DNA of 32,000 nucleotides from Candidatus Saccharimonadota bacterium (GTDB lineage Bacteria; Patescibacteriota; Gracilibacteria; UBA1369; 2-02-FULL-48-14). This document shows positions 338-25,702 of the stretch, one piece after another. The notes under the pieces are model-generated. The model was not told where the DNA came from. It ran no database searches and worked only from the letters and a program-made list of their open reading frames with translations. The DNA lies in contig OZ246396.1 in assembly GCA_965230905.1 (NCBI GenBank), positions 180,001 through 212,000 on the forward strand. The letters run 5' to 3'. Both the position numbers and the translations under genes were made by a program. Within the stretch, counting starts at the first letter, position 1, and every line of letters begins with the position of its first letter.

Positions 338-340
338 CCC

Positions 341-3385: not shown

Positions 3386-3954
3386 GTGATAGAAATAAAT
3401 TTATAGCCGGCCTCTTGATCCTTTTAGTGACCATCGGCTATGGCGTGTTCCAATGGTATGAACGCGAAGCCTTGGCGGTACAAGCCACCGTTTTGAGCAC
3501 CGAAGCGGCCAACCTCACTGCCGTGAGCGACAATTTGAGGGAAGATTACGACGCCATTAAAGTGGAAGTGTCTGCTGCCCGTGAAACGGCTGAGCAAGAA
3601 CTTTCGGTGGTATTCCCTACTAAAGAAGATCTCACCACGCTTACGCGTTTCTTTGATGACTTCTCGGTTAAAAACAACTTTGCCAGCAATCCTTTCTTTA
3701 TTAGCAGCTTGTCTTATGATGCGGCCGTAGCGCCCGAGGGCACCAGCTACCGAGTGGTCCCCCTTCGCCTCAGCATTGAAACTTCAAAAAAGAACCTGAG
3801 CAAATTTTTGGAAACCATTGAAACGTCCGGCTCACTGGAAGGCGAGGTTCGCCTGATGAGCGTGGAAGATATTAAGATCCAATACCCGGATGAATTCGGC
3901 GGATCTTACGAAGTTCAAGTCGAAATTTTTGCCTACTTCTCTCAAGAAATTTAA
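3382..3954 (+). CDS. pilO: PilO-like pilus assembly protein
   Basis: 190 aa with a short N-terminus, a TM segment (FIAGLLILLVTIGYGVF) and a coiled coil. The core that follows (FPTKEDLTTLTRFFDDF...YRVVPLRLSIETSKKNLSKFLETIETSGSLEGEVRLMSVEDIKI) is typical of PilO. Coupled by ATGA at 3382-3385 and TAATG at 3952-3956. Confidence 0.65.
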   Translation: MSDRNKFIAGLLILLVTIGYGVFQWYEREALAVQATVLSTEAANLTAVSDNLREDYDAIKVEVSAARETAEQELSVVFPTKEDLTTLTRFFDDFSVKNNFASNPFFISSLSYDAAVAPEGTSYRVVPLRLSIETSKKNLSKFLETIETSGSLEGEVRLMSVEDIKIQYPDEFGGSYEVQVEIFAYFSQEI

Positions 3955-6403: not shown

Positions 6404-6414
6404 ATAGCTTTAAT

Positions 6415-6442
6415 TTGCCTTTTGAAAGGCGTGGTGTAGAAT
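6415..6442 (+). promoter_or_regulatory. Candidate promoter of the pilin gene
   Basis: TTGCCT (6415-6420), 16-nt spacer, TAGAAT (6437-6442). This is the same -10 hexamer as the rplJ candidate promoter. ATG at 6472. Confidence 0.45.
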
Positions 6443-6471
6443 TTGCGTATTCAATTTAACCATACCACGCC

Positions 6472-7020
6472 ATGGTAACCCTTTCTCCGCGCAAACGCGC
6501 TTTCACCCTTATAGAACTTTTGATCGTGATTACGATCATTGGTATTTTGGCCGTTGCCCTTGTACCCCGACTCACCGGAGGACCTGGACGTGCCCGTGAC
6601 GCTCAACGTAAAGCCGATCTTCAACAGATTGCAACCGCGCTTGAGTTCTATGCGAACGACAACTCCGGAGACTACCCCCTTGCAACCACCGGCAACTGTG
6701 CCTCTGGCTTGGCTTTAACCAGCTATTTAACCGTAATGCCTGTGGATCCTGGCAACGATGGTTGGTCTACGACTTATTGTTCAGGTGGATATGCATATAT
6801 CCCGCTCAATACCAATGGCGGTACAGATATTGAAGGCTACTTACTCGTAGCGGATCTTGAGACGGAAACGGAGAAAGGAACGGGTATTTATAACACCAAC
6901 TTTACCGTTACCTCTACATCCACTGCCGCTGCCAACTTCTCAAGTACCAGCCCAGGTAATGCTGCTAAGCTCTGCAGCGCAATGACTTGTACTGACGCCA
7001 TTGTGGTGATTGGACGATAA
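6472..7020 (+). CDS. Type IV prepilin / pseudopilin (GspG/ComGC-like N-terminus)
   Basis: 182 aa with a class III signal MVTLSPRKRA|FTLIELLIVITIIGILAVALVP and Glu at +5. A GspG-like helix follows (RDAQRKADLQQIATALEFY). Four Cys lie in the C-terminal globular part. A strong terminator follows the gene. Confidence 0.9.
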   Translation: MVTLSPRKRAFTLIELLIVITIIGILAVALVPRLTGGPGRARDAQRKADLQQIATALEFYANDNSGDYPLATTGNCASGLALTSYLTVMPVDPGNDGWSTTYCSGGYAYIPLNTNGGTDIEGYLLVADLETETEKGTGIYNTNFTVTSTSTAAANFSSTSPGNAAKLCSAMTCTDAIVVIGR

Positions 7021-7035
7021 TTCTATCGACTTAGG

Positions 7036-7145: not shown

Positions 7146-7153
7146 GCTAGAAT
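7145..7153 (+). promoter_or_regulatory. Extended -10 element (TGcTAGAAT) 7 nt upstream of the giant-gene ATG
   Basis: TGCTAGAAT at 7145-7153 with no good -35. The A of the ATG at 7160 sits where a transcription start would be expected, which suggests a leaderless or near-leaderless mRNA. Confidence 0.3.
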
Positions 7154-7159
7154 TCCTGC

Positions 7160-13100: not shown

Positions 13101-16100
13101 CGGAGTATGGAACTTTGTCGTCTGAAACTTTTGCTTTGAATCAAGGGGTGGCGACCGTGAGAGTGACCACGGGTGAGGTGAGCGGAAAAATCAGCTTAGT
13201 GGCCAGCGCGACCGGCCTTTTGGCCGGGGTTTGGGGCGGCGACGTGAGCTACCGCATCAGCGGAGAAGAGTTTGCGGACATGGATTTGCAAATGCTTTAT
13301 GGGTCTGTGCTCGGGGCGCCGTTCGGAGACGTGACGCAAGAAAACTACGTGGCCGGGTGGATGACCTTCAATGGAAAAACCCAGGCCGTGACCAGTTTGA
13401 TTTCTGAGCCCATACCCAAGAAACGCATCGCAAGCGTGGACGCCAACGGAGCCGTGAGTCTGCCCGAAGACGGAATGGTGAGCCAAGTGGTGAATGGGGC
13501 TGGAAGCGAACTGCCCACGCACATTCAGTGGCGCTCCTTCCCCGACGACATTTTGATTGGGGAACTCTTTTACGTGCTGTCCGAGGACATGGAAATTAGT
13601 GCGGAACTCATCACTTCTAAAGACACCTTCACGCTGGAGGCAAGCGACGGAACTTGGGTGCTGCGTGAGGACAACGCGGCCGTGGTGAAAGTGCGCACGG
13701 ATGGCCAAGTGGTGCTGGTGGATCCCACGTATTCTTTGGTGGTGAACGGGGCCGCGCAGGGTCTGGGCTTTGGAGTTTTGAAGAACACGGAACAAATCAT
13801 GAGCATTGATTTCAGCGGCGAATTTGGCACCGATGTGAGCGCCGTGGACACCAATTTTGACTTGGAAGACTGGGCCAGCCAAACAGCCGGCGTCTATCTT
13901 AAACCCACCGGCGCGAGTGTGAACCGCATAGTGCGCATACCCACGGGAAACAGTTCCCAAAATCCTATGGGTCTGGCCATTATCGATCCTGAAACCGACT
14001 TGGCTAAAGAAATGCAGCCTTCGCTGGGCTACCAAAGTTTGGAGGCCGCGGAAGACAATGGAAACATTGGATGGGAAGATGAGAACAAACATCTGCTGCT
14101 CTTTGCAGCGGGAAACACCGTGGGGCAATCCAACCTCTACTACCCTTCTGAAGTGGGCGTGGTGCTGGGAGATCCAACCATTAAACTGCCCACCTTGGGA
14201 GAGCTGGGGACCTTGGGTTACACGAGTGATGTGGGGACGCTGGTTTCTACATCCAACGAAGAAGTGCTGACGCTGATGGACCTGGATTACAACGGCGATG
14301 ACTTGCCCGATGTGCTCACCGCTTATAAAGACGGCCGCATTGAAGTGCTGCAAAACGCCAAGGCCGCGACGCGTCTGCACAACCGCGGTGAACTGCTTTA
14401 CATTGAAAACGGCATCTCCTCCATCGACAAAGGCGATTTCAATAACGACGGCCTGGAAGACCTGCTGATTGTGACGGAAGAAGCCTGTTACGAAGGCGAA
14501 ATGTGCTTGTACTTATACGAAAATATTGGCGGAGGATTTGTGGCCAAGAACTTGGCGCTCACCGGCATTTCCGGCACGCCCACCCAAGTGGAAGTCGGCG
14601 ATTTGAACGACGATGACTACGACGACTTGGTGATTGTGGATGAGAACATGGTGATGTACACCGTGTGGAATTCGGAAGGCGTTTTGGAAACCGTGGACGA
14701 GGTGAAAGATTTTGGGCTGAACGCGGATCCCGAAGAAGAGCTGGGCGCCGATGTGGCCGTGCGCACGGATGACTTGGCAAAAGGTTCCGTTTCTTTGGGG
14801 ATTTTAACGGATGATTTCAGTGAAGAAAATGGAGCGGAGGACTTTTTGGCGGCGCTGGGCGTGGACGACGATTACACCGCGGCTTCTACCGAAGGCTTGC
14901 AGCGAAAAGAAAATCAGGCCTTTGAATACGCCGACAGCCGGGCGATGGAAGACTTGGTGGCGGTGAGCAAAACCGTGGCGGACCCCAGTAGCGGCAGTGT
15001 GGAAGTGGGCGATGTGCTCACCTACACCGTGACCGTGGAAAATATTTCCGGCGCGGCGTACTCTGCGCTTTACCTTTCCGACAGCGTGGGCAATTATTTC
15101 CAATTCGATGAAGACAGCTTTGCTTGCAGCGATTGTTCCCCTGCCAATACAGGCGTGACGATTCAAGAAGGCGACAACAACCGACCCTTTATTTATGGAC
15201 CGCTCAGCCTCAGCAACGGGGAAAGCCTGACCTTCACCTACGACGTTTCCGTGGAATCCTTGCCCAAACTTTCTGTGATGCTTTCGCAGGATTTGTACAC
15301 GGATTACAAAGACGACAACTATATGGACATTGGGGTTTCGCCCGAGGGCAACACCAGCGGGGAATTGATCGTTTTCTATTCAGATGGATACGTGACCCAT
15401 GTGCTTGAGGAAGGTTTCTTGGGTCTGGGTGGAAACAGCTTCAAGCAGGTGAACTACCAAGAAAAGGCCTATTCCCCCGCCACCTACGCCGAAGAGGACA
15501 ACACCATACCAAACCCCTTTGGAGACGAAGACGGCGACGGCGTGCCGGATTTCTTGGCCAAGATGGATCAGGAAAAAGGAATTCCCGTGGCCAAGAATGG
15601 AGACTTCGATGCCGTGGGAGAAGTGCTGGGAGCCGTGGACGAAGATGAGGATGGTTACTACTCCACCGATGAAATGTTCGACAACACCGAGGACGCGGAC
15701 GGCGACGGCATCAACGACATTATAGATATTTGGGTGAGCGGAAATGATTTGCTGCTGGATCCCACTTTGAATTTGGAAGCAGCGGACGACGACGTGGAAC
15801 TGAGCGATGAAGAACTGGAAATCGACCTGGAAGCCGACATTGCTTTGCTGGATAAGGAAGTGGAAGGCCTGACCGATAAAATTGAAGAAATCGTGTCCAT
15901 GTTCACCTGCAACGGAGGGTGTATTGCCTTCCCGGGAAGCGTGGCCTTTTTAGCGCCGGGAAATTACCACGAGCCACTTACCGGGACGACCCTGTTTTTG
16001 GATCCCGGGACGCCGATCTTTGGAATTATCAATGTGTTGCCAGTGGCTTGTACGGCACAGATGTGTTACGCCCCGGGCGCCCTGCGCCTGTACTTAGCGC

Positions 16101-19100
16101 CCACCACCACGCTGGGGCTGGGGCTGGGAATTTGTCTGGGGCCCTACCCCGTGGGCCAGTGTTTCGCCTTCAGCATTCCTTTGCTGCAATTGCTGAGCCT
16201 TTGTGATGTGATCAATGGATACATTTCTGACGGGCTTTCGTCCGCCAGCGCCTTTGTGACGGGCGAGGCTGACACCGCTTACAATGTGGTTGAAAACCTT
16301 TCCAGCGACAATGGAAGCACGGGACTCGAAAGTACGGTGTTTGCCTCATACGAACCGCCTGTTTCGGCGAACTTGAATGTCCAAGTGCCCGGCTTCCCCA
16401 GCATCTTCACGGAGTGGTGGAAGGCACAAAAAGAGGAATTCTTTAAAGTGCTGGACCTGCCCGATATCACGTTCATTTATCCCGACCCCAAGAGTCTGAC
16501 CACGGAATTCACCGGCATCAGCGAGCGCATTGATAAGAGCCGTGAAGAAGACGCGGTGGACGCCGACGGAACCAGGAAAATCGACGAACTCACCAGCGGC
16601 ATTTTGGGGCTTGAGAAATGGCTGAACACGGCCCACGCCCTGCCGCTGATTGATATTGAGCCGGAACCCGTGACCATCCGTTACCCCATGCTCACGCCTG
16701 AGGAAATTGAAATCTTTAAGCGAGATATGCAGGCCTGGGTGGACGACGCTAAGTTGGAGTTGGAAGCGCTCCGAGAGCAAATTGAAATCATGGAGGATTT
16801 AACGGAAATACAAAAAGCTGCCATCGAAGAATTGGAGACCACCGTGACCGAAGCCATCACCGCCATTGAAACCAATTTGGCGATATTGGAAAGTTATACG
16901 GAAATTCCTGAAAAAATTCTGCTCATACGGGACATTGAAGCCTACTACGCCAAGACCATCATTTGTTATGTGGACGCCATTTTAAGCAACACGGCGGGCT
17001 ACCTGACCGAGAACGTGGAACGAATAGAAGCCTGGGGACAGTGGGTTGTGGCTCTGCAGGAAATTGTGGACGGCTGGCAGGTTCTCATAGACCTTTCGGC
17101 GGATCTTATGGATTCCTGTGACAAATGCACCAACCAACGTTACAGCGGCTTGCAATTGCTCTTCAGCTTGTTCGTGTTCATCCCTGATTTTCCTGTGGTG
17201 GAACTGCCCAAGCTACCGGACATTGTGATCGACGTTTCCAATATTCAGGCTGGAATGGACATCGTGTGGCCGGATATAAAGTTTGTGCCGGAGCGTATCA
17301 ATATTCCGGAGTTGCCGCGTCTGGTTATTCCCGACTTGGATATTAAACTGGATGCGGACTTTGATTTAGAACTGGAAATTCCCCTGCTGCCCACTTTTGA
17401 TTTTAACTTTGAACCGCCGGCCCTGCCGCCCCTCACCCTGCCCAATTTACCGAGCCTACCGCCTCCCCCTGCCTTGCCCGAGTTGGATCCAAGCCTGCAG
17501 GCGGCCCTGAACATTGCCAGCAATATTTTGAAGATCGTGTGCATCATCCGCCAAGGGTTCATTCCCACGCCCGAGCTCACCCTCAAGTCGAAAATTGAGG
17601 AAATCACGGAACGTCCGGGGGGAATTGTGCTGCCCTCTGACCTTTCCCAAACGGTGGAATGGCCTGAGTTTAATTTCGACTACTGGAAAGAAATCCGCGT
17701 GAACACCACGCTGAATCTTAATTTGGATTTCTCGGCGCTTTATAACGAAATTTCCGACCTGGGAGAAAAGAGCAACGCAGAGATTACGAAGTTTGTACAA
17801 GAAGCGATCAACGACAATTTGAATGATTTGCAGGATGAAATTAAGTCGATCTTTGACTTGATTGGAGATCAGGAATTGGAAGTGGGCGTAGACGTGGACA
17901 TAGAGGGATCTGCGGACTTCAGCGGAGACGACGCGGGGTTGGATGGAGACGCGGACGCGGAGGGAGAGGCAGAGGGTGATTTCAATACGGAACTGGAGTC
18001 TTATGAAGAAGCCATGAACACCGCTCTGTCTTACAGCGACAACCCCTTGGTGCTGCAAAACCTCGGGGCTTTGAAGCAAGTGATGGGCGGCCTGCAAACT
18101 AAAGTGGATGCGTGGAGCGCTGAGCTGCCTGACGAAGTGCTGCTGAAAGGCGAAGAGGAAATGCTGGCTTTGGACGATCCACGGCTGCACCGCTACAACG
18201 AGATTGTTCAGAACCCTTCTTTCGATAAAGATTTCTTGGCGAGCATTGAAGGCACGCCCCTCGCCTCTTTGGTCACTTTGCGAGATTCCATGATTGCCTA
18301 CACGGAGGAGCTGGATCAAGGCACCATCGCCCTGCGTGGAATGGATGGGGAGTCTTTCCAACGTTACTTGGCTTCCGAAAATATGAGCTCTCCATTCATG
18401 TTGGCGAGTGAAGAAGGCGGCTTCATGGACGCAGCCGCGAACTGGAATCCAGAAAAGTGGGCAACCCCAGCCGAAGATGACGAAGCGGTGGAATTGGCGT
18501 CTGAGTCCACGGATGGACTCGAGCTCGGCACCCAAGCCAGAACCTACGACGAAGGATTGTTCCTCTACAACGCAGAACTGGGCGTGAACGAACGGCTCTC
18601 CGACTACACGCAAGAAGCCAAGGAAGCCAGCAGCATTTTGATGATTGATTTGGACGGCGACGGCGATGAAGACGTGGTTTATTCCATGGGAGGCGACATC
18701 TACTTAAAAGAGAATCACACCGAAGCGCCCACGCTCAGCTACGTGAGCAGTGACCCCGAAGAAAGCACGGTGCCCGACATGGACCCCGGTTACGGCAGCG
18801 TGCAAAATCTGAAACGTGGAAAGAACGATTATGAAGAAGCGAGCTTCTCCTTCTCCCCTTCCGATTCCATTGGATACGACGTGCGTTTCTACGATTCTTT
18901 GGACGCGCAGGAATCTGAACCGGATGAAAATATCAAACGTTTGCTGCTCTTGGTGGACAGTGAAAATGAGAGCAGCACCTTCGCCGATTCAACTGGCAAG
19001 TCCGCCGGGCAATTGCGCAGCAGCCGTCTGTGGGCGGATAACGTGAGCGGAAGCGTGACGGTGAAGAACGGATACAAACGCACGATTATAAACGCGAATG

Positions 19101-21607
19101 GAGAAATCACCGTGAGTGAAGCGGTGGTCTTCCAAACCATTGAGGACAGCGTGATTGAATTTGAAGCGGATGAGGGCGCCACGTCCATTGATGTGCCCGC
19201 GCACACCGTGGTTTCCTTTGCCCAGGGTACGGAAAAAAACATCCGCGTGGAAAACGGTTCGGTGTACTGGGTGGACATGGGTGAAACCGTGGAGGAACAA
19301 GATTTGGCGGAGGGCATGGAACTCTTTGCGGAGGAATTGGTGGCACTGGAAAGCAAGGGGGCCGATGCAGTGCTGGTCACCACCGAGGGCACGGAACTGC
19401 GACTCGATAAACAAGAAGCCTTTGTGATGGATAAACTCATCAGCCAAAGCAGTCCATCGGCCAATATTGAGTTAGAAAATGGGGCTTACTACACGGTGAG
19501 CCGCAGCGTGCAAGCCGACGGAAGTTTTGGAACCCTTTCCGACACCATTCTGCTCAATCCGCAGGTCTGTGCGGACGACAGCGAACCCTACACCCTGATT
19601 GATGATGGCGGCGCCGATACCGATGGCGACGGGGCCATTGAAGTGGCGATTTTCTCCACCAAAGAACTTTCTGCCGAAGGTTCCTTCGACAGCGATAGCG
19701 AGATTGTGGACGCGTACTGGGATCTCGACAGCGGCGTGGACAGCGACGGCGACGGCGTGAGCAACAACGATGAACAAGTGATTGGTCTCACCGCTGAAGT
19801 GGGCCCTTATGAAGATTTGAATACGCGCACCGTTACGCTCTACGTAACCGATGCCGCCGGCAATGTGGGTGAAACGGAAGTCGCGGTGGAAATTTATGTT
19901 CCCGACATTACTTTGGCGGACGCGAGCATCGATGCGGTGAGTGGATTCACCACGCCGAGCAGTCCCCTCTTCCCCTTCGATTTGGTGCGTGACCGCAGCG
20001 GCGCTATCAACGAAATCGGCACGGGTTACTCCACCGATGAAGCGGGAGATTTCAACGAAGACATGATTCCTTCAGACCTGCTCTCCGTTTACGACGGCGC
20101 GGGCGAAACCATTGCTCAGTTCAATCCCACTACTAAGCAAGTCGTGGTCTACGACCCGGCTTACGACGCCATGGTCCTTTCTTCCGATGCGGACTGGCCT
20201 TCCCGCTTGGCCGTGTACGAAAAGAGTCTGGGCATGGTGATGGGCAGCTTCCTATTTGTGGCAGACGGCGAACACCCCATTCAAAAGATGACCCAGCCCT
20301 TGGCTGACTTGGATCTTTCTATATACCAAGGGCTTACGGTGTATCCGGTGGCGGGTGAAGACGGTTACGAATTCACGGATAATTCCTTGGTGGCGCGCGA
20401 CGACTTGGGCTCGCTCGACTTCATTGTGAGCGAAACGGGAAACATCACTATTTTTGACGAGCGCTACACGCTGGTGAAACGGGAGGCCGCGTCTTTGGAT
20501 GAGTACTTGGTGATTGAAGTTTACGACAACGGCACCTTGGAATTGGAGATTTGGCCTGGCACGCCTAAAGCAAGGTATTTGGTCAGCGCCGTGGATTTGG
20601 ATCTGCCTCCGTCCACTTTGATTGGAGCGGGCGATTCCCTGAGCGCGGACTACCGCCTCAACTTTGAGGACATTGAAAACGATGACGAGCTCTACCAAGA
20701 CATTGCCGAGCTCGTGGAACGCGACGTGCTGGAGGGCTACACCATTGAAGGCCAAGCGTACTTCAAGCCCGATCAGTCCATCACTCGTGCTGAATTCACC
20801 AAGATTATTTTGGGCATACTCTGTATCACGCCAAGCGACGAAGCGTACCTGCTTCCCTCTGTGTTCAACGACATTTTGGACAGTGGCGCGTGGTACTATT
20901 CCTTCACCAAAGAATCCTTCCTCCGCGACCTGATTACGGGTTATTTGGGCGAAGTGAATTCCAGTGGTGTGGCTCCGTTCAAACCCAATGCCACCATCAC
21001 CCGTGCCGAGGCCACTAAGATTGTACTCGAGGCCCTGAACCAGGAAGGCATCATTGAATTGCCTGCCGATTTAACCGGCGAGCCTTGGTATGAACCGTAC
21101 ATGGAAATCGCGCAAGATCTAACGCCTTACCTCACCGGTGACGCCACCGCGGGTGAAAGCAATTTCATTGTGACGGAAGCAGAAGCCGCCGATCCTTCTC
21201 ACAAAATGACGCGTTACGAATTTGTAGAAATGTCCGTGCGGGTGCTCAAGGCTTACAATTGTTTCGACCTCGATAGCGACGGCGACGGACTAATCAACTA
21301 CGACGAAGAAAGCAAATACGGCACCGATCCCTACAACCCCGATACCGACAGCGGAGGCGTGGACGACGGCAGTGAAGTGGGCCGCAGCAGCGATCCTTTG
21401 GACGAAAGCGATGACTTTGGAGACGGTTCGCTCGAAGGAGTGGAACCCGGAATTTATGCGGTGCGTGAAGCCTGTATGGCTTGCCCCTGCAATTCCACCA
21501 TCGATTACGACGCTGACCTTAGACCGGGTGATGAAGTCTTTGCTATAATCCGCAATGACGCCGGCGAAATCTTTGGAGTGAGCAACACCTTAACCATTCA
21601 AGAATAG
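7160..21607 (+). CDS. Giant secreted, SLH-anchored mosaic surface protein (4,815 aa), putative adhesin/fibre
   Basis: Uninterrupted 14,448-nt ORF with a signal-peptide-like N-terminus (MRPHHSTHRIKRLVIKGFLLTFLSSLLPMGQVASA). Many extracellular modules can be recognised by eye and are listed as separate 'other' features below. The reading frame is consistent and rich in GAC/GGC/GTG codons throughout. Confidence 0.9.
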   Translation: MRPHHSTHRIKRLVIKGFLLTFLSSLLPMGQVASALSIIDQARPSVIQPGGSLPEIRSVGSVETRYGLVAILVDDELLGSSTSGGGFFSFLGTAGLKEKIQTYAQDVQATLPWTKTVIVEVADTDTPVEIQRMLERFYFEGNPEDSDPTKLSGVVIVGDVPLPVVNKLGNRFISLLPYTDFEEPAYLLDSETQDFLPNAAAQNLQNEIWHGVIVPPLDGQEGIDLLATYFDKNHAFHTGDEDATSFNQKVFIGDLITEASALNPTAFASYERFTNLWEEIAYYRYTNDLVEDLYTQMQTSVEEGDFLDNDSDGFYDEEASNGIDDDNDGLVDEDLGDGFFGIDNDGDGVVDEDSFEDNNNDEGWIYSGYEGSEAESIFSDHMLDEDPPGDTTGGEDQDGDGYLDGDGCPGLCGQDDNGDGVDSDLDGYPTGIEVLYHWDWADERIPWGNVKDWTNAEFAQSFSSDEAATAYLSEMFVDQFFGDAYKSPTCYFDGVYHPEYDDDEDGFCDEDGKEEMQIWANENGTRASGTCAYNDGDCDGVIDEDPIGLKSEGMFDNLPDIQAKRVVESLTSRYASMFDEPQGVWNRIVGQTGRYETRSSDGETVSNDYDSTVSLIAKKDELVLQYLTELNASMEAKVDAIVEDHLAQDIPLIAGVQITGKITTENEDGDEEGTDEICDDEGEVDLGSDKCLQFVNQSGFDPLAFGILDEESSFLDIFKLGAEHFYIAGEHLWDVTSPAQCTTFAGTDEVGGQLAQFNSLYSREFSVAHNNMSIEELQDYRNCVPEFASYLKDIPQVCNVATTVKSVRTLDGAKAPDEDTDTSKWDVGAEACFEFRELETFNDYTQSQAEFNNWLSLRIRVFRESGATDTGETYQEFLGLVEEQMDTYTPRPDEATLRKQFRELDLLRADDERSYTMIDLLEELGYKNVSDDDVDTFIAMLDDESDFVTVDLDVDDLRDLVDELDEIVQLQDNDRLIINHPKQGSGMDDVQSLELIFNRLYLIGGDVVGEAGVYGLSDTRLAMNTITSVHKHVEPTSETLNAQVTNAGSPNMPIDATRRISFIDNGDDARELVYVNVFEAETVEDVQDQITALADEMAIVAGGGSFVNDVKNFYDNKKDGINEYQLKDALAWRYMSIDEKHRYVLSHYLGEQEAIVSKARKGYEMVSIIADGSATEISYSMNGGKPGTEEDPEYNYRDDAGIAAALAASQDTAEELEPISPVSNTTPVLLSEWIEAMDDWMAEVEDSLSSGGTANYCGEDYIYPSDINTDSDASGIPDGADATTSLLLSSDDINVLLAEGEGNDSYVVSVGAKQADGTINTLDNYTQVKLQILSGDTVVEVQGTDTLTLTGGVAVFELKGELPGSFALRAEAANRDDVSSSNSLNGTVVSKYVNIMTLIKEMTGTDGESTVVQGNRIEVTDAEGEVRAVLDPETGGIELRGAEAELREAESSAPTRIAILGEDGTVYGSFFLIPSTERVAIGNGPSGVFVQVVGGAASAAMDENGVALEVTLEDTAVQMGLVTGLGQIAVADGYSLEFDNPSEINLYDPVHVLSGDGETLFTVTINHSFTEGNIEEAIVEGVPEDFSSLGSFDHEPGVYAASKTAAYERIAVSSGDSVASTNIFTNDIPADGKSEIYVRAEIRDQADKVYGDDNTSVIEFVLSTEDHGEIETKRVQVSGGVAEAKFVTTKVAGDVTVEGRITDGSLPSLDAQIHVYPGEPVRLELQGESRVLPAGAEAATDMTVYLYDQFGNLASNGFYPVTFTTEGGVTLLDLNDEDSTADGVQVTTADGSIAFRVLASPEVESASVQVSLPQIPDGGDSFNIEHKESLALKVSTTKPYLFAGGSNGQTLTVSVVDELGIPVSGFNGDVLMSVSDPGYGSFESDTLTLDNGKASTTLLPGTLAGSGSIIAESAGIQGGSSTVVLKPADIYELRIRKEDGTFNMAAGEKEKFYIEGFDVYGNLVDTDSSTSGTLRLTDATAEYGTLSSETFALNQGVATVRVTTGEVSGKISLVASATGLLAGVWGGDVSYRISGEEFADMDLQMLYGSVLGAPFGDVTQENYVAGWMTFNGKTQAVTSLISEPIPKKRIASVDANGAVSLPEDGMVSQVVNGAGSELPTHIQWRSFPDDILIGELFYVLSEDMEISAELITSKDTFTLEASDGTWVLREDNAAVVKVRTDGQVVLVDPTYSLVVNGAAQGLGFGVLKNTEQIMSIDFSGEFGTDVSAVDTNFDLEDWASQTAGVYLKPTGASVNRIVRIPTGNSSQNPMGLAIIDPETDLAKEMQPSLGYQSLEAAEDNGNIGWEDENKHLLLFAAGNTVGQSNLYYPSEVGVVLGDPTIKLPTLGELGTLGYTSDVGTLVSTSNEEVLTLMDLDYNGDDLPDVLTAYKDGRIEVLQNAKAATRLHNRGELLYIENGISSIDKGDFNNDGLEDLLIVTEEACYEGEMCLYLYENIGGGFVAKNLALTGISGTPTQVEVGDLNDDDYDDLVIVDENMVMYTVWNSEGVLETVDEVKDFGLNADPEEELGADVAVRTDDLAKGSVSLGILTDDFSEENGAEDFLAALGVDDDYTAASTEGLQRKENQAFEYADSRAMEDLVAVSKTVADPSSGSVEVGDVLTYTVTVENISGAAYSALYLSDSVGNYFQFDEDSFACSDCSPANTGVTIQEGDNNRPFIYGPLSLSNGESLTFTYDVSVESLPKLSVMLSQDLYTDYKDDNYMDIGVSPEGNTSGELIVFYSDGYVTHVLEEGFLGLGGNSFKQVNYQEKAYSPATYAEEDNTIPNPFGDEDGDGVPDFLAKMDQEKGIPVAKNGDFDAVGEVLGAVDEDEDGYYSTDEMFDNTEDADGDGINDIIDIWVSGNDLLLDPTLNLEAADDDVELSDEELEIDLEADIALLDKEVEGLTDKIEEIVSMFTCNGGCIAFPGSVAFLAPGNYHEPLTGTTLFLDPGTPIFGIINVLPVACTAQMCYAPGALRLYLAPTTTLGLGLGICLGPYPVGQCFAFSIPLLQLLSLCDVINGYISDGLSSASAFVTGEADTAYNVVENLSSDNGSTGLESTVFASYEPPVSANLNVQVPGFPSIFTEWWKAQKEEFFKVLDLPDITFIYPDPKSLTTEFTGISERIDKSREEDAVDADGTRKIDELTSGILGLEKWLNTAHALPLIDIEPEPVTIRYPMLTPEEIEIFKRDMQAWVDDAKLELEALREQIEIMEDLTEIQKAAIEELETTVTEAITAIETNLAILESYTEIPEKILLIRDIEAYYAKTIICYVDAILSNTAGYLTENVERIEAWGQWVVALQEIVDGWQVLIDLSADLMDSCDKCTNQRYSGLQLLFSLFVFIPDFPVVELPKLPDIVIDVSNIQAGMDIVWPDIKFVPERINIPELPRLVIPDLDIKLDADFDLELEIPLLPTFDFNFEPPALPPLTLPNLPSLPPPPALPELDPSLQAALNIASNILKIVCIIRQGFIPTPELTLKSKIEEITERPGGIVLPSDLSQTVEWPEFNFDYWKEIRVNTTLNLNLDFSALYNEISDLGEKSNAEITKFVQEAINDNLNDLQDEIKSIFDLIGDQELEVGVDVDIEGSADFSGDDAGLDGDADAEGEAEGDFNTELESYEEAMNTALSYSDNPLVLQNLGALKQVMGGLQTKVDAWSAELPDEVLLKGEEEMLALDDPRLHRYNEIVQNPSFDKDFLASIEGTPLASLVTLRDSMIAYTEELDQGTIALRGMDGESFQRYLASENMSSPFMLASEEGGFMDAAANWNPEKWATPAEDDEAVELASESTDGLELGTQARTYDEGLFLYNAELGVNERLSDYTQEAKEASSILMIDLDGDGDEDVVYSMGGDIYLKENHTEAPTLSYVSSDPEESTVPDMDPGYGSVQNLKRGKNDYEEASFSFSPSDSIGYDVRFYDSLDAQESEPDENIKRLLLLVDSENESSTFADSTGKSAGQLRSSRLWADNVSGSVTVKNGYKRTIINANGEITVSEAVVFQTIEDSVIEFEADEGATSIDVPAHTVVSFAQGTEKNIRVENGSVYWVDMGETVEEQDLAEGMELFAEELVALESKGADAVLVTTEGTELRLDKQEAFVMDKLISQSSPSANIELENGAYYTVSRSVQADGSFGTLSDTILLNPQVCADDSEPYTLIDDGGADTDGDGAIEVAIFSTKELSAEGSFDSDSEIVDAYWDLDSGVDSDGDGVSNNDEQVIGLTAEVGPYEDLNTRTVTLYVTDAAGNVGETEVAVEIYVPDITLADASIDAVSGFTTPSSPLFPFDLVRDRSGAINEIGTGYSTDEAGDFNEDMIPSDLLSVYDGAGETIAQFNPTTKQVVVYDPAYDAMVLSSDADWPSRLAVYEKSLGMVMGSFLFVADGEHPIQKMTQPLADLDLSIYQGLTVYPVAGEDGYEFTDNSLVARDDLGSLDFIVSETGNITIFDERYTLVKREAASLDEYLVIEVYDNGTLELEIWPGTPKARYLVSAVDLDLPPSTLIGAGDSLSADYRLNFEDIENDDELYQDIAELVERDVLEGYTIEGQAYFKPDQSITRAEFTKIILGILCITPSDEAYLLPSVFNDILDSGAWYYSFTKESFLRDLITGYLGEVNSSGVAPFKPNATITRAEATKIVLEALNQEGIIELPADLTGEPWYEPYMEIAQDLTPYLTGDATAGESNFIVTEAEAADPSHKMTRYEFVEMSVRVLKAYNCFDLDSDGDGLINYDEESKYGTDPYNPDTDSGGVDDGSEVGRSSDPLDESDDFGDGSLEGVEPGIYAVREACMACPCNSTIDYDADLRPGDEVFAIIRNDAGEIFGVSNTLTIQE
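8081..8803 (+). other. Acidic DxDxDG-type calcium-binding loop cluster (domain of giant protein)
   Basis: Examples: DNDSDGFYDEE, IDDDNDGLVDED, IDNDGDGVVDED, EDQDGDGYLDGDG, DDNGDGVDSDLDG, DDDEDGFCDED, NDGDCDGVIDED. Further copies lie at 15512-15733, about 19600-19775 and 21266-21420. Confidence 0.7.
11009..11340 (+). other. Ig-like beta-sandwich domain (Big-type) of giant protein
   Basis: About 110 aa: LLLSSDDINVLLAEGEGNDSYVVSVGAKQADGT...TLTLTGGVAVFELKGELPGSFALRAEA. The pattern of alternating beta-strands is typical of bacterial Ig-like domains. Confidence 0.5.
12029..13228 (+). other. Four tandem Ig-like (invasin/Big_1-style) repeats of giant protein
   Basis: Four units of about 100 aa. Each contains 'ADG/AGxxxxxx(V/L)xVxxxDxxGNxV' and a later 'G(V/K)Axxx(F/L/V)xxxxxxG' motif. 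Examples: IPADGKSEIYVRAEIRDQADKVY...GGVAEAKFVTTKVAGDVTV; TDMTVYLYDQFGNLAS; QTLTVSVVDELGIPVS...NGKASTTLLPGTLAGSGSI; EKFYIEGFDVYGNLVD...QGVATVRVTTGEVSGKISL. Confidence 0.6.
14278..14680 (+). other. FG-GAP/VCBS-type repeats (integrin-alpha-like) of giant protein
   Basis: DLDYNGDDLPDVLTAYKDGRIEVL, GDFNNDGLEDLLIVTEE and GDLNDDDYDDLVIVDENMVMYTVW. One more copy, DLDGDGDEDVVYSMGGDIYL, lies at 18647-18715. Confidence 0.65.
14963..15257 (+). other. DUF11-style conserved repeat domain of giant protein
   Basis: VSKTVADPSSGSVEVGDVLTYTVTVENISGAAYSALYLSDSV...GESLTFTYDVSVES matches the usual pattern (K.v......v..Gd.ltYtitv.N.G...a..v.l.D.lp...g.s.t.ty.v.v). Confidence 0.5.
15908..16230 (+). other. Hydrophobic Cys/Pro/Gly-rich core segment of giant protein
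   Basis: CNGGCIAFPGSVAFLAPGNYHEPLTGTTLFLDPGTPIFGIINVLPVACTAQMCYAPGALRLYLAPTTTLGLGLGICLGPYPVGQCFAFSIPLLQLLSLCDVINGY. It has seven Cys and is almost free of charged residues, in contrast to the highly acidic flanks. I recognise no family. Confidence 0.6.
19634..19905 (+). other. PKD-like domain of giant protein
   Basis: AIEVAIFSTKELSAEGSFDSDSEIVDAYWDLDSGVD...RTVTLYVTDAAGNVGETEVAVEIYV follows the PKD pattern (FDaSgS.D.dG.I..Y.WDfGDG...h.Y...G.Y.VtLtVtD..G......v.i.V). Confidence 0.55.
20663..21255 (+). other. Three S-layer homology (SLH) motifs of giant protein
   Basis: FEDIENDDELYQDIAELVERDVLEGYTIEGQAYFKPDQSITRAEFTKIILGIL; FNDILDSGAWYYSFTKESFLRDLITGYLGEVNSSGVAPFKPNATITRAEATKIVLEAL; EPWYEPYMEIAQDLTPYLTG...PSHKMTRYEFVEMSVRVL. 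The F.P...iTRAE signature is present in the first two copies and degenerate in the third. Confidence 0.75.
21266..21420 (+). other. Thrombospondin type 3-like repeat of giant protein
   Basis: DLDSDGDGLINYDEESKYGTDPYNPDTDSGGVDDGSEV matches the bacterial TSP3 motif DxDxDGxxDxxE..GTDPxxxDTDxxGxxDGxE. Confidence 0.7.
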
Positions 21608-21616: not shown

Positions 21617-22204
21617 ATGCTTAAAAAATTTGAAAATAAATTCTTTCTGGTTTGCGCCGCACTGGTGCTGGTCTTCAATGGCCTGCTCTATGCTTTTGCA
21701 GCAGAAACTGAGCTGGTGACGGATGTGCCCAAGCCGGTGGATGGAACGGATTTTCAATGTGGTTACGACGTGATGCAAGAAGCCCAAGTACTGGTGGATT
21801 CGTATCAAGTTTTTTTGGACGATTACTTTAAACAAGTCACGCCTTCGAGTGAACAAGTGGACGGCGCCATGAAGTACTACCGCCTGATGGAATTCTCCAT
21901 TCAAAAAATCTACCAAAGCAACTTAAGGCAAGACACCAACTTCAATTTAAACAGCAGCATTCAAGCCAACTCTTATTGTGCTTACGTGCGTGACCTTTAT
22001 TTGGACATCGCCAGCGCCATGCTGCAAAAACAAGTCATTGCTTCTTCCAGCAGCAAACGCACCTTCCTTATGGTGGACGGACTCAAAGCGACCAACGAGC
22101 ACATGGAAATTTTTGCAGATGAGTTCAGTGCCGTTTTCCCTGGCTTCTTTACTAAATTCAACAACGCTTTACCTTGTTACGCGCACCAATGTATAAACAA
22201 ATGA
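21617..22204 (+). CDS. Secreted hypothetical protein 1 of the post-giant cassette (195 aa)
   Basis: Starts 9 nt after the giant-gene stop. Signal peptide MLKKFENKFFLVCAALVLVFNGLLYAFA|AE. Four Cys in the mature part. Ends ...FPGFFTKFNNALPCYAHQCINK. Confidence 0.8.
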   Translation: MLKKFENKFFLVCAALVLVFNGLLYAFAAETELVTDVPKPVDGTDFQCGYDVMQEAQVLVDSYQVFLDDYFKQVTPSSEQVDGAMKYYRLMEFSIQKIYQSNLRQDTNFNLNSSIQANSYCAYVRDLYLDIASAMLQKQVIASSSSKRTFLMVDGLKATNEHMEIFADEFSAVFPGFFTKFNNALPCYAHQCINK

Positions 22205-22830
22205 CTTGGGTCAAATGGTTCGCGCTCGCCTTTGTGGCGGGATTCCTGCTCCCCCGCACGTACGGGCCGAGCCTAAGTGCGAGCCTACTCGGCCCCACTA
22301 GCAGCACCTTTGACGGCATGGACATGACCGATGCCATCACCGAATACCATTTGCGTGCCAACCAAACCGTGGATCAGTTCCTGGATGTTTTGCTGGACCC
22401 GGACCTTTCTGAGTTGGTGGTGAGCTACCCTCCCGACGACAGTGAGTGCACCGGGAATGTTTCCACGTATTGTTTGGCCGTTTCGCTCAACAACAACCTC
22501 GAAGACTTTGCAATTTACCTCCAAAAAAATCAAACGAGTTTTAGCGACAGTCTTTTTGAAGACGATGCAGCGCTGAGTCTGCAGGACGCTCTGGACACGG
22601 CGGCACATCAACGCAGCACCGTGGACGAACAAGTGGCCTTGGCTGAAGACAGCATCGATCTGACCCTGGCCGTGTACAACCAAGTGCAATTGGTTTACCC
22701 CGTGCACAAAGAGATGCTCGCTTTGATCCAAAACCTGGACGATTACCGGGGCAATCTTTCAAAAATTCGCGACGTACTTGAGGAATATCCTTCTAAATTC
22801 AACGGCGCCAGTACCGCCCAATGTAAATGA
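22201..22830 (+). CDS. Secreted/membrane-anchored hypothetical protein 2 of the cassette (209 aa from ATG 22201)
   Basis: The ORF track starts this gene at 22174, but the ATG at 22201 forms an ATGA overlap with the upstream stop and gives a clean hydrophobic N-terminus (MTWVKWFALAFVAGFLLP). Three Cys. Ends ...YPSKFNGASTAQCK. Confidence 0.75.
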   Translation: MTWVKWFALAFVAGFLLPRTYGPSLSASLLGPTSSTFDGMDMTDAITEYHLRANQTVDQFLDVLLDPDLSELVVSYPPDDSECTGNVSTYCLAVSLNNNLEDFAIYLQKNQTSFSDSLFEDDAALSLQDALDTAAHQRSTVDEQVALAEDSIDLTLAVYNQVQLVYPVHKEMLALIQNLDDYRGNLSKIRDVLEEYPSKFNGASTAQCK

Positions 22831-24650
22831 AAAAATTCCTTCTTTTCAGCATCGGGATGGTCCTGAGTCTTACCGCCGGTATGACGGTGAGCCAAGCGCT
22901 CATGAGCGACGACGATTTGCTCGCTCATATTTTTGAAGAAGCCGGGGTGGACATGAGCGACAGTCACGACGCCAAGGAACTATCCAATTTAGCGTCGGGC
23001 GAAGTTCCCTTTGAAGGGCTTTATTTATTCATGCTTCAAAACATTAAGAACGGCCCTCAAGATGCCGCGATTGAAGAAATCGCCAAACGCTACCAATACA
23101 CCGAGGAAGAAATTGAAGCCATTGTGCTCACCGGAGACAGCCAAGGAATCATCAATAAAAAACAGGAAGAAGTCTTGGCGGCACAAGCGGCGGGCGCCGC
23201 CGAACAGATGGAAGCTGCCCAAGCCCAGGCAGACGCCGACCTCGAAACGTTTATTGCCGACAACAGCTTTGGAGCAAACACCGAAACCTTCGTCCGCGAG
23301 TACTACGCTACGTATGAGCGACCTCCCCTGGCCACGGATTTGGATGATCCGTTGACCTCGGATTTCCTTTTGGACCGCATGGCGGAAATTGGCGGTGCCT
23401 ACGACAAGGAACTCGAATTCCAACAATCCAACCGCCGCTTGGCCTACGAGGCTTTGGCGAGTGAAATGTTCATGAACAATAAGCTCGGGGACTCCGCCAA
23501 CATCGACTTGCTCTACGACTTGGATTTGATTCATTATTTGCTGTTTGGCGAGCTGATCACCTACCCGGACCGCAGCGACGAGGATGTGAATTTGGCGTCG
23601 GAAGTGCTGGAGGAAGAAGCGCCCATTGTCATGTTTAAGCAGCCGGAACCCCGTGAAGAAGTTATTTTGGCCGAAGAAGAAATCGATCCTTATGTTTGTT
23701 ACGGTGATGAAGCTTTGGCCGGAGCTCTGAGTAGCTATGAAAGCAATCCGCCCGACACCGGCGACGCCTTACCGGAAAGCGTGAGTCGCATCGATTACAG
23801 CCTGGGAAGCTCGGGTGGTTCAGGCGAGTCTGGTGGTTCAGGTGGGTCCGCTGAAGAAGATAATCCTTTCCTCACCGATATTGGTGCGGCTTTCCAAGCC
23901 TTGGACGATGTACTGAGTAACTTGGAAGCGCCCAAAGGAAACTGGAATCGCAACTACACTTGTAACCAAACTTTCTGTGTTGAAGTCTTGGTGATTGCGG
24001 AAAATGAGGATGCCGAAGTGGAACACGAAAGCATGGAAGCAGCTGACTTTGAAGAGAATGAAAACTGCATCGCCTGCCACACGGCCTTCATTGAAAAACG
24101 GCTCGAAGAAACCATGAGCAAAAGTTTGGTGCCCAGTAAAATCACCATGAATTGGTTTGAAGATGCCACGTGTAAAGAAGCGGGTAGCTTTGTGAATTTG
24201 GATCTGAATGTCTACGCCATCAAGCGTCCCATCGATCTGGACCCTGGGGATGATTTGGATGAGAAAGCCAATGAAGACATTGAAGTTTTCAAAACCACGC
24301 TCGGTCCTTTGATTGGCATCAACGATAATTTTGGAAAGACCAAGAGCGAGGCTGAATGCGAAAGCATCCTCAACCTTGGAAAAGCCGCCGACGCCGAACG
24401 CGGCATCGATAAATTATTGGAACAATGCCAAGACGCAGCGACTGAAAACGTCGCTCAAATTCAAGAAGCCTTCGATGAATTCAACTTCAAGACCTACTCC
24501 CAAACAAGCAGTGATCTCTACGGTCAAGTTTCTACTGAACTCTACACCATGCTGCTCTACTTCCGAACTTTCCAGGAAGGCGTTAAAGACACCTATGTAA
24601 ACGGCCAAGCTCCTCTGGCTTCCCTACTCACTAAAGGTTATTGCAAATGA
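22827..24650 (+). CDS. Secreted hypothetical protein 3 of the cassette (607 aa)
   Basis: ATGA overlap at 22827-22830. Signal peptide MKKFLLFSIGMVLSLTAGMTVSQA|LM. A central Gly/Ser linker (GSSGGSGESGGSGGS) sits near 23805-23860. All nine Cys lie in the C-terminal half. Ends ...LLTKGYCK. Confidence 0.8.
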   Translation: MKKFLLFSIGMVLSLTAGMTVSQALMSDDDLLAHIFEEAGVDMSDSHDAKELSNLASGEVPFEGLYLFMLQNIKNGPQDAAIEEIAKRYQYTEEEIEAIVLTGDSQGIINKKQEEVLAAQAAGAAEQMEAAQAQADADLETFIADNSFGANTETFVREYYATYERPPLATDLDDPLTSDFLLDRMAEIGGAYDKELEFQQSNRRLAYEALASEMFMNNKLGDSANIDLLYDLDLIHYLLFGELITYPDRSDEDVNLASEVLEEEAPIVMFKQPEPREEVILAEEEIDPYVCYGDEALAGALSSYESNPPDTGDALPESVSRIDYSLGSSGGSGESGGSGGSAEEDNPFLTDIGAAFQALDDVLSNLEAPKGNWNRNYTCNQTFCVEVLVIAENEDAEVEHESMEAADFEENENCIACHTAFIEKRLEETMSKSLVPSKITMNWFEDATCKEAGSFVNLDLNVYAIKRPIDLDPGDDLDEKANEDIEVFKTTLGPLIGINDNFGKTKSEAECESILNLGKAADAERGIDKLLEQCQDAATENVAQIQEAFDEFNFKTYSQTSSDLYGQVSTELYTMLLYFRTFQEGVKDTYVNGQAPLASLLTKGYCK

Positions 24651-25702
24651 AACTCTCCCACACCTTTTTCACCGGATTTCTTTTCCTAACGGGCGTCGCC
24701 TTGCCGGGTCTTGTCACCGACGCTTCGGTAGTGGATGGGCTCAACTGCGGCAGCCAATATTACGATTTTATTTTGAGTGTGCGCAGTGAAAACACTCGAG
24801 AACAGTTCATTCAAGACTTCCGACGAGGCTACTGCCAGTTGAACGACCTTATGGAACTGGACGACGAGCTCGACACCCTGCGTGAAAATTTCCGTACGGC
24901 GGCCTTTGATTGCGCCGACACGAGTCCGTATCAGGAAGAATACCACCGCATTTTGATGGAGCAGTATTTTATCCGCAACGTTCAACAAAGCCCTTCGGAT
25001 GTGATTCGTGAAAAGGAAGCCCTTGAGCTCGAAGCCGCTAAGGAGGCGATTTTAACGGGCCTTAAAGCAGATATGATCGCCGTGTTTGTGGTGGAAGAAG
25101 GCCGGGTTTCTGAGCCGGTGCTCAATGACTATTTTGACAGCTGGACGCTCAAATACGAAGACCGCATCGGCAATTATTACCGATGTGAAGAAGGTGGATT
25201 CGCTGAAATCAAAGAGAGTTGGGATGACTTTGTGGAGACCATTGAAACCCTGAGCGTGGACATTGAACCGCACGAAAAAATTTCTTTCAAAGACAATATT
25301 AAATTCGACAACGATTTGGATGAAGAAACGGAACAACTCCAAGACATCGGGCAGAACACAATCGACGGCTGGAGCTATTATAAAAATTTAATGGGCATTG
25401 GTAAGAATACAGTGGAAGCGCCCGCTAAGGTGAGTGACTTTGACGGTACGGGCGAAGTGTTTACCTTTGGCAGTGCTTTGGATATTTTACAAAGCGACAC
25501 CACCCGCGCCACTATTCAGGCCGAAAGCGCCGAGCGCATGGCCAAGTACAAACTCTTGTATGGTGAAGGCGGCGCGGTGGCGGCCACCGACATGCAGGGC
25601 GTTTTGCAATACATGAACCAAATCATCGCCGAAACCAACGCCAAAGACTTCCCCGGGGTTTTGACCGGCGTGACGAAGGTGTATGAACGCCAATGTAACT
25701 GA
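24647..25702 (+). CDS. Secreted hypothetical protein 4 of the cassette (351 aa from ATG 24647)
   Basis: The ORF track uses TTG at 24641. The ATG at 24647 gives an ATGA overlap with the upstream stop (24648-24650). Hydrophobic N-terminus MKLSHTFFTGFLFLTGVALPGLVTDA|S. Five Cys. Ends ...FPGVLTGVTKVYERQCN. Confidence 0.8.
   Translation: MKLSHTFFTGFLFLTGVALPGLVTDASVVDGLNCGSQYYDFILSVRSENTREQFIQDFRRGYCQLNDLMELDDELDTLRENFRTAAFDCADTSPYQEEYHRILMEQYFIRNVQQSPSDVIREKEALELEAAKEAILTGLKADMIAVFVVEEGRVSEPVLNDYFDSWTLKYEDRIGNYYRCEEGGFAEIKESWDDFVETIETLSVDIEPHEKISFKDNIKFDNDLDEETEQLQDIGQNTIDGWSYYKNLMGIGKNTVEAPAKVSDFDGTGEVFTFGSALDILQSDTTRATIQAESAERMAKYKLLYGEGGAVAATDMQGVLQYMNQIIAETNAKDFPGVLTGVTKVYERQCN

Follow-up and report, generated by a model that had tools for sequence, protein, structure and literature searches.

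Organization of the locus

The window, i.e. the whole stretch of 32,000 nucleotides that was analysed, covers 32 kb of a 1.3-Mb Peregrinibacteria genome of an uncultured bacterium from Hainich groundwater. It carries, all on the forward (+) strand, a type IV pilus-like gene set (2189..7020), directly downstream of this set a gene encoding a giant exported protein (7160..21607), and then a cassette of four genes, here called p1 to p4. The pilus-like set comprises a 398-aa ORF (2189-3385) with a weak PilN match (E 0.01), a 190-aa ORF (3382-3954) with a weak T2SSM match (T2SSM_b, E 0.14), a PilB-type ATPase (3954-5204), a PilC-type platform protein (5201-6403) and a prepilin (6472-7020) with a clear N-methylation match (PF07963 / TIGR02532). 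The giant protein (4,815 aa) shows FG-GAP, SLH and Ig-like/DUF11 matches and contains an even total of 34 Cys residues, with a Cys-rich region at 2917-3461. Its last ~55 residues, which include a C-x2-C-P-C motif (21473-21490), are conserved in all lineages examined.

The giant ORF (7160-21607) ends 9 nt ahead of the start of p1, and p1 (21617-22204, 195 aa), p2 (22201-22830, 209 aa counted from the ATG at 22201), p3 (22827-24650, 607 aa) and p4 (24647-25702, 351 aa) are chained by ATGA overlaps at 22201, 22827 and 24647. This confirms the arrangement given in the initial annotation, and the same four genes were obtained with an independent gene caller run on the source contig. The start of p2 is ambiguous (TTG 22174, ATG 22189 or ATG 22201). 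The Cys positions first assigned to the four proteins were likewise right, the terminal Cys lying 2-4 residues from each end.

Conservation of the four-gene cassette

In about 110 loci the order giant gene, p1, p2, p3, p4 is kept and all four cassette genes are present wherever the contig has room for them. Junction overlaps are mostly 1-16 nt, varying with the start chosen, and the p3/p4 overlap amounts to 4 nt in nearly all loci; the tight coupling of p1-p4 seen in the window is thus conserved. A giant gene of the SLH/FG-GAP kind lies directly 5' of p1 in related loci, and the expected co-occurrence of cassette homologues with such a gene was found in nearly every locus with sufficient upstream sequence, the exceptions being three loci that have over 5 kb of upstream sequence and yet no long ORF whose end falls within 250 nt of p1. 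The pilus set and giant gene occur in the same arrangement in two other genomes (three in all). With a p3 family of 331 clusters at 50% identity, the cassette, its giant partner and the pilus genes rank among the most conserved lineage-specific blocks of Peregrinibacteria, and this block is devoid of any annotation.

Orthologues retain the terminal Cys: across 24-25 non-redundant Peribacteria loci it does not vary in any of the four families. The aromatic-Pro dipeptide ahead of it is also conserved, F174/P175 of p1 and P197 of p2 being invariant and P336 of p4 being kept in at least 90%, so that the likeness of the four C-termini goes beyond chance. Of the 'VDG...CG' context that had been taken as common to p1 and p4, orthologues conserve only the Cys.

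Properties of the encoded proteins

The signal-peptide-like N-termini noticed at first sight (p1 MLKKFENKFF..., p2 MTWVKWFALAF..., p3 MKKFLLFSIG..., p4 MKLSHTFFTG...) proved to be a family trait, a basic N-terminal stretch followed by a single hydrophobic segment being present in 109 of 111 sequences across all four families. A second TM-like segment was found in none of the 111, nor was any hydrophobic segment beyond residue 45, and the proteins stop 1-3 residues past the terminal Cys. Known C-terminal sorting signals (LPXTG, PEP-CTERM, GlyGly-CTERM, MYXO-CTERM) were considered and rejected, as the tails lack the signature, hydrophobic helix and basic cluster of such signals.

Apart from Cys13 inside its signal segment, p1 contains Cys48, 121, 187 and 192; the conserved C48 and C121 probably form an intrachain pair, and the tail reads P-C187-Y-x3-C192 (codons 22175-22177 and 22190-22192). 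In p2 (Cys83, 91 and 208), C83 and C91 probably close a local loop and the conserved tail is [FY]P-x-K-F-x-[DG]-A-[ST]-T-x-x-C208-x (Cys codon 22822-22824). The exported protein p4 has Cys34, 63, 89, 180 and 350 (terminal codon 25694-25696); judging from joint losses, C34 presumably pairs with C89 and C63 with C180. AlphaFold2 monomer models of p3 and p4 are all-alpha, though poor (mean pLDDT 60 and 65), and fall below pLDDT 50 in both tails, which is consistent with tails that may become ordered only inside a complex.

In p3, the largest and most conserved subunit, a helical N-terminal domain is followed by a Gly/Ser-rich linker and by a C-terminal half that is conserved. The nine Cys of p3 include C379 (23961-23963), C414-x-x-C417-H418 (24066-24080), C449 (24171-24173), the C511/C534 pair and the terminal C606 (24642-24644); by parity one is left over, probably C379. 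The CxxCH motif (N-C414-I-A-C417-H418 in the window) occurs in 159 of 177 full-length members of the family, H418 is replaced by Glu in one whole clade (CxxCE), and C379 and H418 are lost together. An exported protein with a conserved CxxCH and a distant Cys that disappears along with the His resembles mono-haem c-type cytochromes with His/Cys ligation. It differs from these in having no consistent cytochrome family match among 71 family members scanned (the only Pfam signal, Cytochrome_C554 at E 0.11, is non-significant), in its CxxCE clade and in the poor modelling of the region. [quoted passage not shown] Peribacteria are reported to lack most respiratory components (PMC4736985).

In line with the initial impression that no characterised family is involved, p1-p4 have no match in Pfam, NCBIfam, PHROGs, PADLOC or PDB sequences, and the p3 and p4 models gave no Foldseek/PDB match. 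Two specific candidates were rejected: type IV minor pilins or pseudopilins, since p1-p4 show no N_methyl match (PF07963 / TIGR02532) even at E<=1, and alignment-complex proteins of the PilN/PilO/GspL/GspM type, which p1-p4 do not match and from which the all-alpha p3 and p4 models depart. The divergent paralogy that had been suggested for the four proteins found no support either: the best BLASTP hit among them has E 0.04, family HMMs iterated over about 110 loci gave no cross-hits between p1, p2, p3 and p4, and hhalign probabilities between families reach at most 43% with and 16% without signal peptides. The explanation that we think probable as a whole treats p1-p4 as four orphan bacterial families that are mutually unrelated.

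Covariation of cysteines between the proteins

After removal of duplicate loci, the presence of Cys was compared between proteins (counts given as both, discordant, discordant, neither). C187 of p1 and C606 of p3 covary perfectly (49, 0, 0, 31; at least four independent changes), as do C192 of p1 and C350 of p4 (72, 0, 0, 2; two independent joint losses). A third pair, position 597 of p3 and position 341 of p4, both non-Cys in this window, gave 44, 0, 1, 33 with hmmalign and 52, 0, 0, 36 with a tail alignment, with at least three changes. These three inter-protein pairs have phi values of 0.97-1.0 and at least nine joint events in total. On a neighbour-joining tree, an approximate one built from p3 itself for metagenome loci that carry no taxonomy, the changes are always joint (at least four, three and two for 187/606, 597/341 and 192/350). 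When independent traits with equal numbers of changes were simulated, perfect concordance arose with P <1e-5 (187/606), ~1e-5 (597/341) and 1.5e-4 (192/350). C208 of p2 and C449 of p3 (81, 0, 0, 1) constitute a tentative fourth pair, since they were lost jointly in a single locus, L090; its P of ~0.011 fails correction for the number of column pairs.

Cross-combinations (p1-187 with p4-341, p3-597 with p3-606) fill all four cells, which indicates that the pairs vary independently of each other and that the two p3 tail Cys are not an intrachain pair. Pairs of the intrachain type behave like the inter-protein ones (C511/C534 of p3: 16, 0, 0, 75; also C63/C180 of p4), and every variable Cys of the cassette has its partner within the cassette. 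An intermolecular disulfide between cassette members, as originally envisaged, thus gains backing from strict covariation. The argument then put forward, that odd Cys counts would fit an intermolecular disulfide of the terminal Cys, was only partly right; it does not hold for p1, whose count is even and both of whose tail Cys nevertheless appear to be inter-chain.

A proposed disulfide-linked complex

We infer inter-chain disulfides, a 1:1:1:1 stoichiometry and a role in attachment. The model that we favour, and consider somewhat better than even, is a helical heterotetramer that would be obligately partnered with the giant SLH protein in a surface attachment module. The four proteins, mainly alpha-helical, would be Sec-exported, with N-terminal segments either cleaved or retained as anchors, and would be produced in fixed proportion from their overlapping genes and come together as one heterotetramer outside the cytoplasm. 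There the C-terminal tails would meet and be stapled by the disulfides p1-C187/p3-C606, p1-C192/p4-C350 and, tentatively, p2-C208/p3-C449. The first two make the p1 tail (PCYxxxC) the proposed hub that bridges the ends of p3 and p4, and an extra p3-p4 tail disulfide in relatives would close the triangle. Tied obligately to the giant, wall-anchored SLH/FG-GAP protein and to the upstream type IV pilus genes, an association that we infer from synteny only, the complex would most likely be a structural module of the surface attachment apparatus of presumed episymbiotic bacteria.

Covariation alone shows functional coupling and nothing more, and the tail Cys might instead bind a metal or cofactor at the subunit interfaces without any disulfides, perhaps with the CxxCH/C379 centre of p3 taking part, in the manner of the Rad50 zinc hook or of an inter-subunit Fe-S or Zn site. 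The anaerobic nature of the organisms, the conserved CxxCH, the joint loss of C379 and H418 and the spare p3 Cys all fit such a site, and a largely anoxic groundwater habitat counts against disulfides, which outside the cytoplasm need a dedicated oxidase. We still regard this as unlikely, as the coupling is strictly pairwise with pairs gained and lost independently, which is the signature of disulfide partners and not of a site with 4-6 ligands, and as the intrachain pairs of these proteins follow the same pattern. Moreover, CPR bacteria typically possess a disulfide-forming system, MdbA-like oxidoreductase plus VKOR being enriched in them (PMC6744442), and the proteins encoded by Peribacteria include a disulfide-forming one and many that are Cys-rich and exported (PMC4736985).

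Quite unlikely, in our opinion, is a covalent link between the cassette and the giant protein through one or more of the terminal Cys, of which p2-C208 is the most plausible, with a partner in C-x2-C-P-C or in region 2917-3461. The giant gene is adjacent in nearly every adequate locus, its conserved C-terminal motif has an odd number of Cys (three) and the partner assigned to p2-C208 depends on one locus; however, that locus loses p2-C208 and p3-C449 together, the other variable Cys are all paired inside the cassette and the Cys total of the giant protein is even. We would give still less credence to p1-p4 as parts of the pilus machine, for instance as a non-canonical tip or priming complex that takes the place of the four minor pilins, with the giant gene a mere operon neighbour. 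The synteny of pilus genes, giant gene and cassette in three genomes, the presence of only 1-3 pilin genes in the cluster and the resemblance of four fixed-ratio subunits to GspHIJK or ComGDEFG agree with this; against it, p1-p4 lack the prepilin G|FxxxE motif and any PF07963 match, the p3/p4 models show no pilin fold, the weak PilN and T2SSM signals already fall on upstream ORFs and the cassette adjoins the giant gene instead of the pilin gene. That p1-p4 are divergent paralogues with separate functions, whose aromatic-Pro...Cys tail directs sorting or processing by a common enzyme, is highly improbable, for despite the similar tail architecture and the weak hhalign alignments that run end to end between p1 and either p2 or the C-terminal part of p3 (P 3e-4 to 7e-4, probability 10-16%), profile similarity between the families is not significant, the tails lack the helix and basic cluster of known sorting signals, and partner-specific covariation is not expected from a sorting signal.

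Significance and comparison with known systems

CPR bacteria account for a large part of bacterial diversity and presumably live in attachment to host cells, and to our knowledge their host-attachment apparatus is almost unknown outside Saccharibacteria. Under the heterotetramer model, covariation turns four 'hypothetical proteins' into a testable scheme of which chain bonds which and via which residue, and offers a defined target to expression work, structure determination, antibodies and cryo-ET labelling. More generally, disulfide topology in uncultured organisms can be mapped from the covariation of Cys between proteins in metagenomes. There is also a modest chance that the locus encodes an unrecognised, lineage-wide Peregrinibacteria surface machine by which these episymbionts attach to or exploit their hosts, a single syntenic block combining a type IV pilus motor, a wall-anchored protein of ~5,000 aa and a covalently knotted helical tetramer, with a redox or metal centre in the core subunit p3 (CxxCH and Cys379, perhaps a haem with His/Cys ligation).

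Some extracellular helical hetero-oligomers are locked by inter-chain 'disulfide knots', as at the C-terminal end of laminin alpha/beta/gamma and in the N-terminal knot of fibrinogen. The cassette as proposed shares with these the separately exported helical chains, the fixed stoichiometry and the clustering of disulfides at one chain end, whereas laminin and fibrinogen are eukaryotic and have no sequence or fold relationship to p1-p4, for which a coiled coil would be conjectural. With the minor (pseudo)pilin tips (GspH-I-J-K, FimU-PilV-W-X, ComGD-E-F-G) it has in common four tandem genes for small proteins in a pilus/T2SS cluster and a presumed stoichiometric complex. Unlike those tips, p1-p4 lack the prepilin leader, N-methylation motif and pilin fold, possess ordinary Sec-type N-termini and are encoded directly behind a giant gene and not behind pilin genes. 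Among CPR episymbionts and predators, Vampirococcus lugosii (PMC8080830) and Peribacteria (PMC4736985) have type IV pili and giant exported proteins rich in Cys, with a presumed function in host attachment, and term searches of these two papers retrieved no four-gene cassette, inter-subunit disulfide network or fixed pilus-giant-cassette operon. The locus described here belongs to the same clade (Absconditabacteria, Gracilibacteria, Peregrinibacteria) and follows the same theme of giant proteins combined with pili.

Results

The four open reading frames (ORFs) of the cassette lie on the forward strand as p1 (21617-22204, 195 aa), p2 (22201-22830, 209 aa counted from the ATG at 22201, with alternative starts at 22189 and 22174), p3 (22827-24650, 607 aa) and p4 (24647-25702, 351 aa). 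p1 starts 9 nt past the stop of the 4,815-aa ORF (7160-21607) encoding the giant protein, and ATGA overlaps chain p1 to p4 in the window sequence. A Shine-Dalgarno-like motif precedes none of the four starts in the window (0/4), consistent with translational coupling. The ORFs match the initial annotation exactly, and its ATGA chain and list of Cys positions were confirmed. The exact p4 sequence also occurs, with identical gene calls, in assembly ERZ1292638 of the Hainich groundwater 0.2-µm fraction.

By the database names of its homologues, the window belongs to Candidatus Peregrinibacteria/Peribacteria. For p3, 59 close homologues were found, and 331 clusters, including 282 with E≤1e-10, came from a profile search against 1.84 billion representatives. 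Cassette loci (numbered L001 onwards) were collected by exact protein look-up, from GTDB species genomes (21 loci) and from JGI metagenomes (80 loci), the latter scanned with 32 distant p3 members. Iterated family HMMs detected p1 in 93 segments, p2 in 98, p3 in 114 and p4 in 99, and the order p1-p2-p3-p4 was kept in every locus with room for it. At most junctions the genes overlap, by 1-16 nt according to the start chosen, and p3 shares 4 nt with p4 in almost all loci. Where more than about 2.3 kb is available upstream, nearly every locus has a long ORF that extends past the upstream boundary and whose 3' end is no more than 250 nt from p1; by this test it was not found in L051, L068 and L096, despite more than 5 kb upstream in each. 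Where gene calls exist, the encoded protein is 4,352 to 6,159 aa long and matches SLH and FG-GAP. The giant gene consists of two overlapping ORFs (2,351 and 2,665 aa) in L006 (locus positions 1-8812; complete genome CP064962) and is interrupted upstream of 8767 in L019, with a 681-aa ORF directly before p1; these breaks may reflect a frameshift, a genuine split or misassembly.

Export of the four proteins, as initially proposed, agrees with the basic N-terminus followed by a single hydrophobic segment in 109 of 111 sequences from the four families, none of these 111 sequences having further transmembrane-like segments. In p1 (A28) and p4 (A26), the residue at the likely -1 site is an Ala with a conservation of at least 90%. 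In the hydrophobic segments of p2 (F11 and G14) and p3 (G10, S14 and G18), small-xxx-small residues are kept, so that these two segments may be retained as membrane anchors.

Among Peribacteria, the invariant or nearly invariant Cys (window numbering throughout) are C48, C121, C187 and C192 in p1, C83, C91 and C208 in p2, C291, C379, C384, C414, C417, C449 and C606 in p3, and C34, C63, C89, C180 and C350 in p4; p3 C511 and C534 occur together in 16/24. In the wider family some cassette Cys vary, and they do so as pairs between proteins. p1-C187 and p3-C606 are both present in 49 loci and both absent in 31, without a single locus having only one. The tail Cys of p3 (at window L597) and of p4 (at window G341) are both present in 44 and both absent in 33, the second occurring alone once, and a dedicated tail alignment gave 52/0/0/36 (both, first only, second only, neither). 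For p1-C192 and p4-C350 the counts are 72/0/0/2, the two joint losses being in L042 and L067, and for p2-C208 and p3-C449 they are 81/0/0/1, the sole joint loss, in L090, consisting of clean substitutions (C to V and C to Y). Cys taken from different pairs show no association and fill all four cells (p1-187 versus p4-341, 24/24/20/9; p3-597 versus p3-606, 32/30/26/13), which indicates that the pairs are independent of one another and that the two tail Cys of p3 do not form a pair.

On an approximate neighbour-joining tree of p3 from 75 loci, the minimum number of changes was 4 for p1-187/p3-606, 3 for the p3/p4 tail pair and 2 for p1-192/p4-350, and these changes were always joint. Perfect concordance of simulated independent traits with equal change numbers had P < 1e-5, ~1e-5 and 1.5e-4, respectively, and one event alone P ~0.011. 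Once some 300 column pairs are allowed for, significance is retained by the first two pairs, p1-192/p4-350 is borderline and p2-C208/p3-C449 is only a lead. Intrachain pairs behave likewise (p3 C511/C534, p4 C63/C180, and p4 C34/C89 with joint loss in L011, L068 and L096), which validates the approach. In the clade of L034, L041-L056 and L072, three additional Cys arise together, one in p2 (window K109) and two in p3 (window L492 and ~501); they may form a further inter-chain link, but they reflect a single evolutionary event.

Intrachain bonding of the tail Cys was considered as an alternative. Pairing of the p3 tail Cys Ca and Cb was rejected, all four presence/absence combinations being common, as was pairing of p1 C187 with C192, since C192 is nearly invariant whereas C187 varies.

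Divergent paralogy of p1-p4, which the initial annotation suggested, is not supported. The best BLASTP match among the four had E 0.04, iterated HMM cross-searches of the families gave no cross-matches, no segment being matched by two of the family HMMs, hhalign probabilities were ≤43% with and ≤16% without signal peptides, and comparison of the last 70 residues alone likewise gave no convincing signal. hhalign also aligned p1 weakly, end to end, with p2 and with the C-terminal region of p3 (P ~3-7e-4), which gives hints of paralogy at best. The resemblance of the tails may reflect convergence on a shared interface.

p3 contains C414-I-A-C417-H418 (24066-24080), an N-C-[IV]-x-C-H motif that 159 of the 177 full-length family members share; fewer have the terminal Cys (140/177). 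One large clade has Glu for H418 and has lost C379 (23961-23963) as well, and this joint change points to a functional pair: C379, which is probably the Cys left over by parity once the inter-chain pairs are assigned, and H418 look like metal or haem ligands, or a dyad. Pfam scans of p3 and of 71 family members gave no consistent cytochrome family match, which makes the haem reading speculative. Between the N-terminal helical domain and the conserved C-terminal half of p3 lies a Gly/Ser-rich low-complexity linker (residues ~325-345, 23800-23860, GSSGGSGESGGSGGS), a region whose length differs widely among homologues.

Scans of p1-p4 against Pfam, NCBIfam, PHROGs and PADLOC gave no match, nor did searches of PDB sequences with a profile of each of the four families, and the Pfam scans of the 71 p3 members gave no consistent family. 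AF2 models of p3 (mean pLDDT 60) and p4 (mean pLDDT 65, built on an alignment of database homologues) are all-alpha, with confident N-terminal helical domains and disordered tails; the models are weak, and their best Foldseek matches in the PDB (E 1.2 for p3, 0.75 for p4) are meaningless. Readings of p1-p4 as minor pilins or as PilN/O proteins, and of their tails as C-terminal sorting signals, were tested and rejected. Our literature searches found no description of the cassette.

On the upstream side of the giant gene lie two ORFs of 398 and 190 aa, with weak matches to PilN and T2SSM, respectively, and genes for a PilB-type ATPase, a PilC-type platform protein and a prepilin. Three divergent genomes (window 514-7020, L116 and L117) share, in synteny, the series rplJ, rplL, 398-aa ORF, 190-aa ORF, PilB, PilC, one to three prepilins and giant gene, and the pilus genes and giant gene look like one conserved block. 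The last ~55 aa of the giant protein (21437-21604), directly before p1, are kept with their three Cys across all lineages examined, in the pattern GIYAV-x-E-x-C-x2-C-P-C...GD-x-VFAII (C-x2-C-P-C at 21473-21490).

Just 3' of p4, in antisense, lies a gene for a 56-aa HTH_17 (MerR/excisionase-type) protein (25980-26150, reverse strand), and such a gene follows p4 in most loci with gene calls (L001, L003-L008, L011, L012 and L034). UvrA, PrsW protease, an SMC-like ATPase and ThrRS recur farther 3'. A 131-aa ORF (26381-26776, forward strand) with a lipobox-like N-terminus (LLLTACGG) and weak lipoprotein signal-peptide matches is not conserved beside the cassette in other loci.

Discussion

Joint gain and loss of Cys specific to the partners is the classical signature of disulfide partners. 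Because Cys of different cassette proteins are gained and lost jointly and partner-specifically, the earlier interpretation is partly supported: this holds for disulfides between subunits but not for paralogy. In the window, p1-C187 would bond to p3-C606, p1-C192 to p4-C350 and, tentatively, p2-C208 to p3-C449. The short p1 tail (P-C-Y-x3-C) would thus tie the C-termini of p3 and p4, and p3 would be the hub of a covalent heterotetramer, which agrees with the fixed stoichiometry that the overlapping genes suggest. The p3-p4 tail bond would be ancestral and gone in the Peribacteria clade. Such inter-chain bonds are chemically feasible, since an MdbA-like oxidoreductase and VKOR are enriched in CPR bacteria (PMC6744442) and Peribacteria encode a disulfide-forming protein together with numerous exported proteins rich in Cys (PMC4736985).

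A candidate site for docking of the cassette complex is the C-terminal domain of the giant protein, and we infer from synteny only that p1-p4 may be linked to this protein and to the pilus genes. The cassette is without a known counterpart and gives a specific, testable structural model. For its function, we propose a possible role in surface attachment, following the proposal of surface attachment made for the giant proteins and pili of the sister lineage (PMC8080830).
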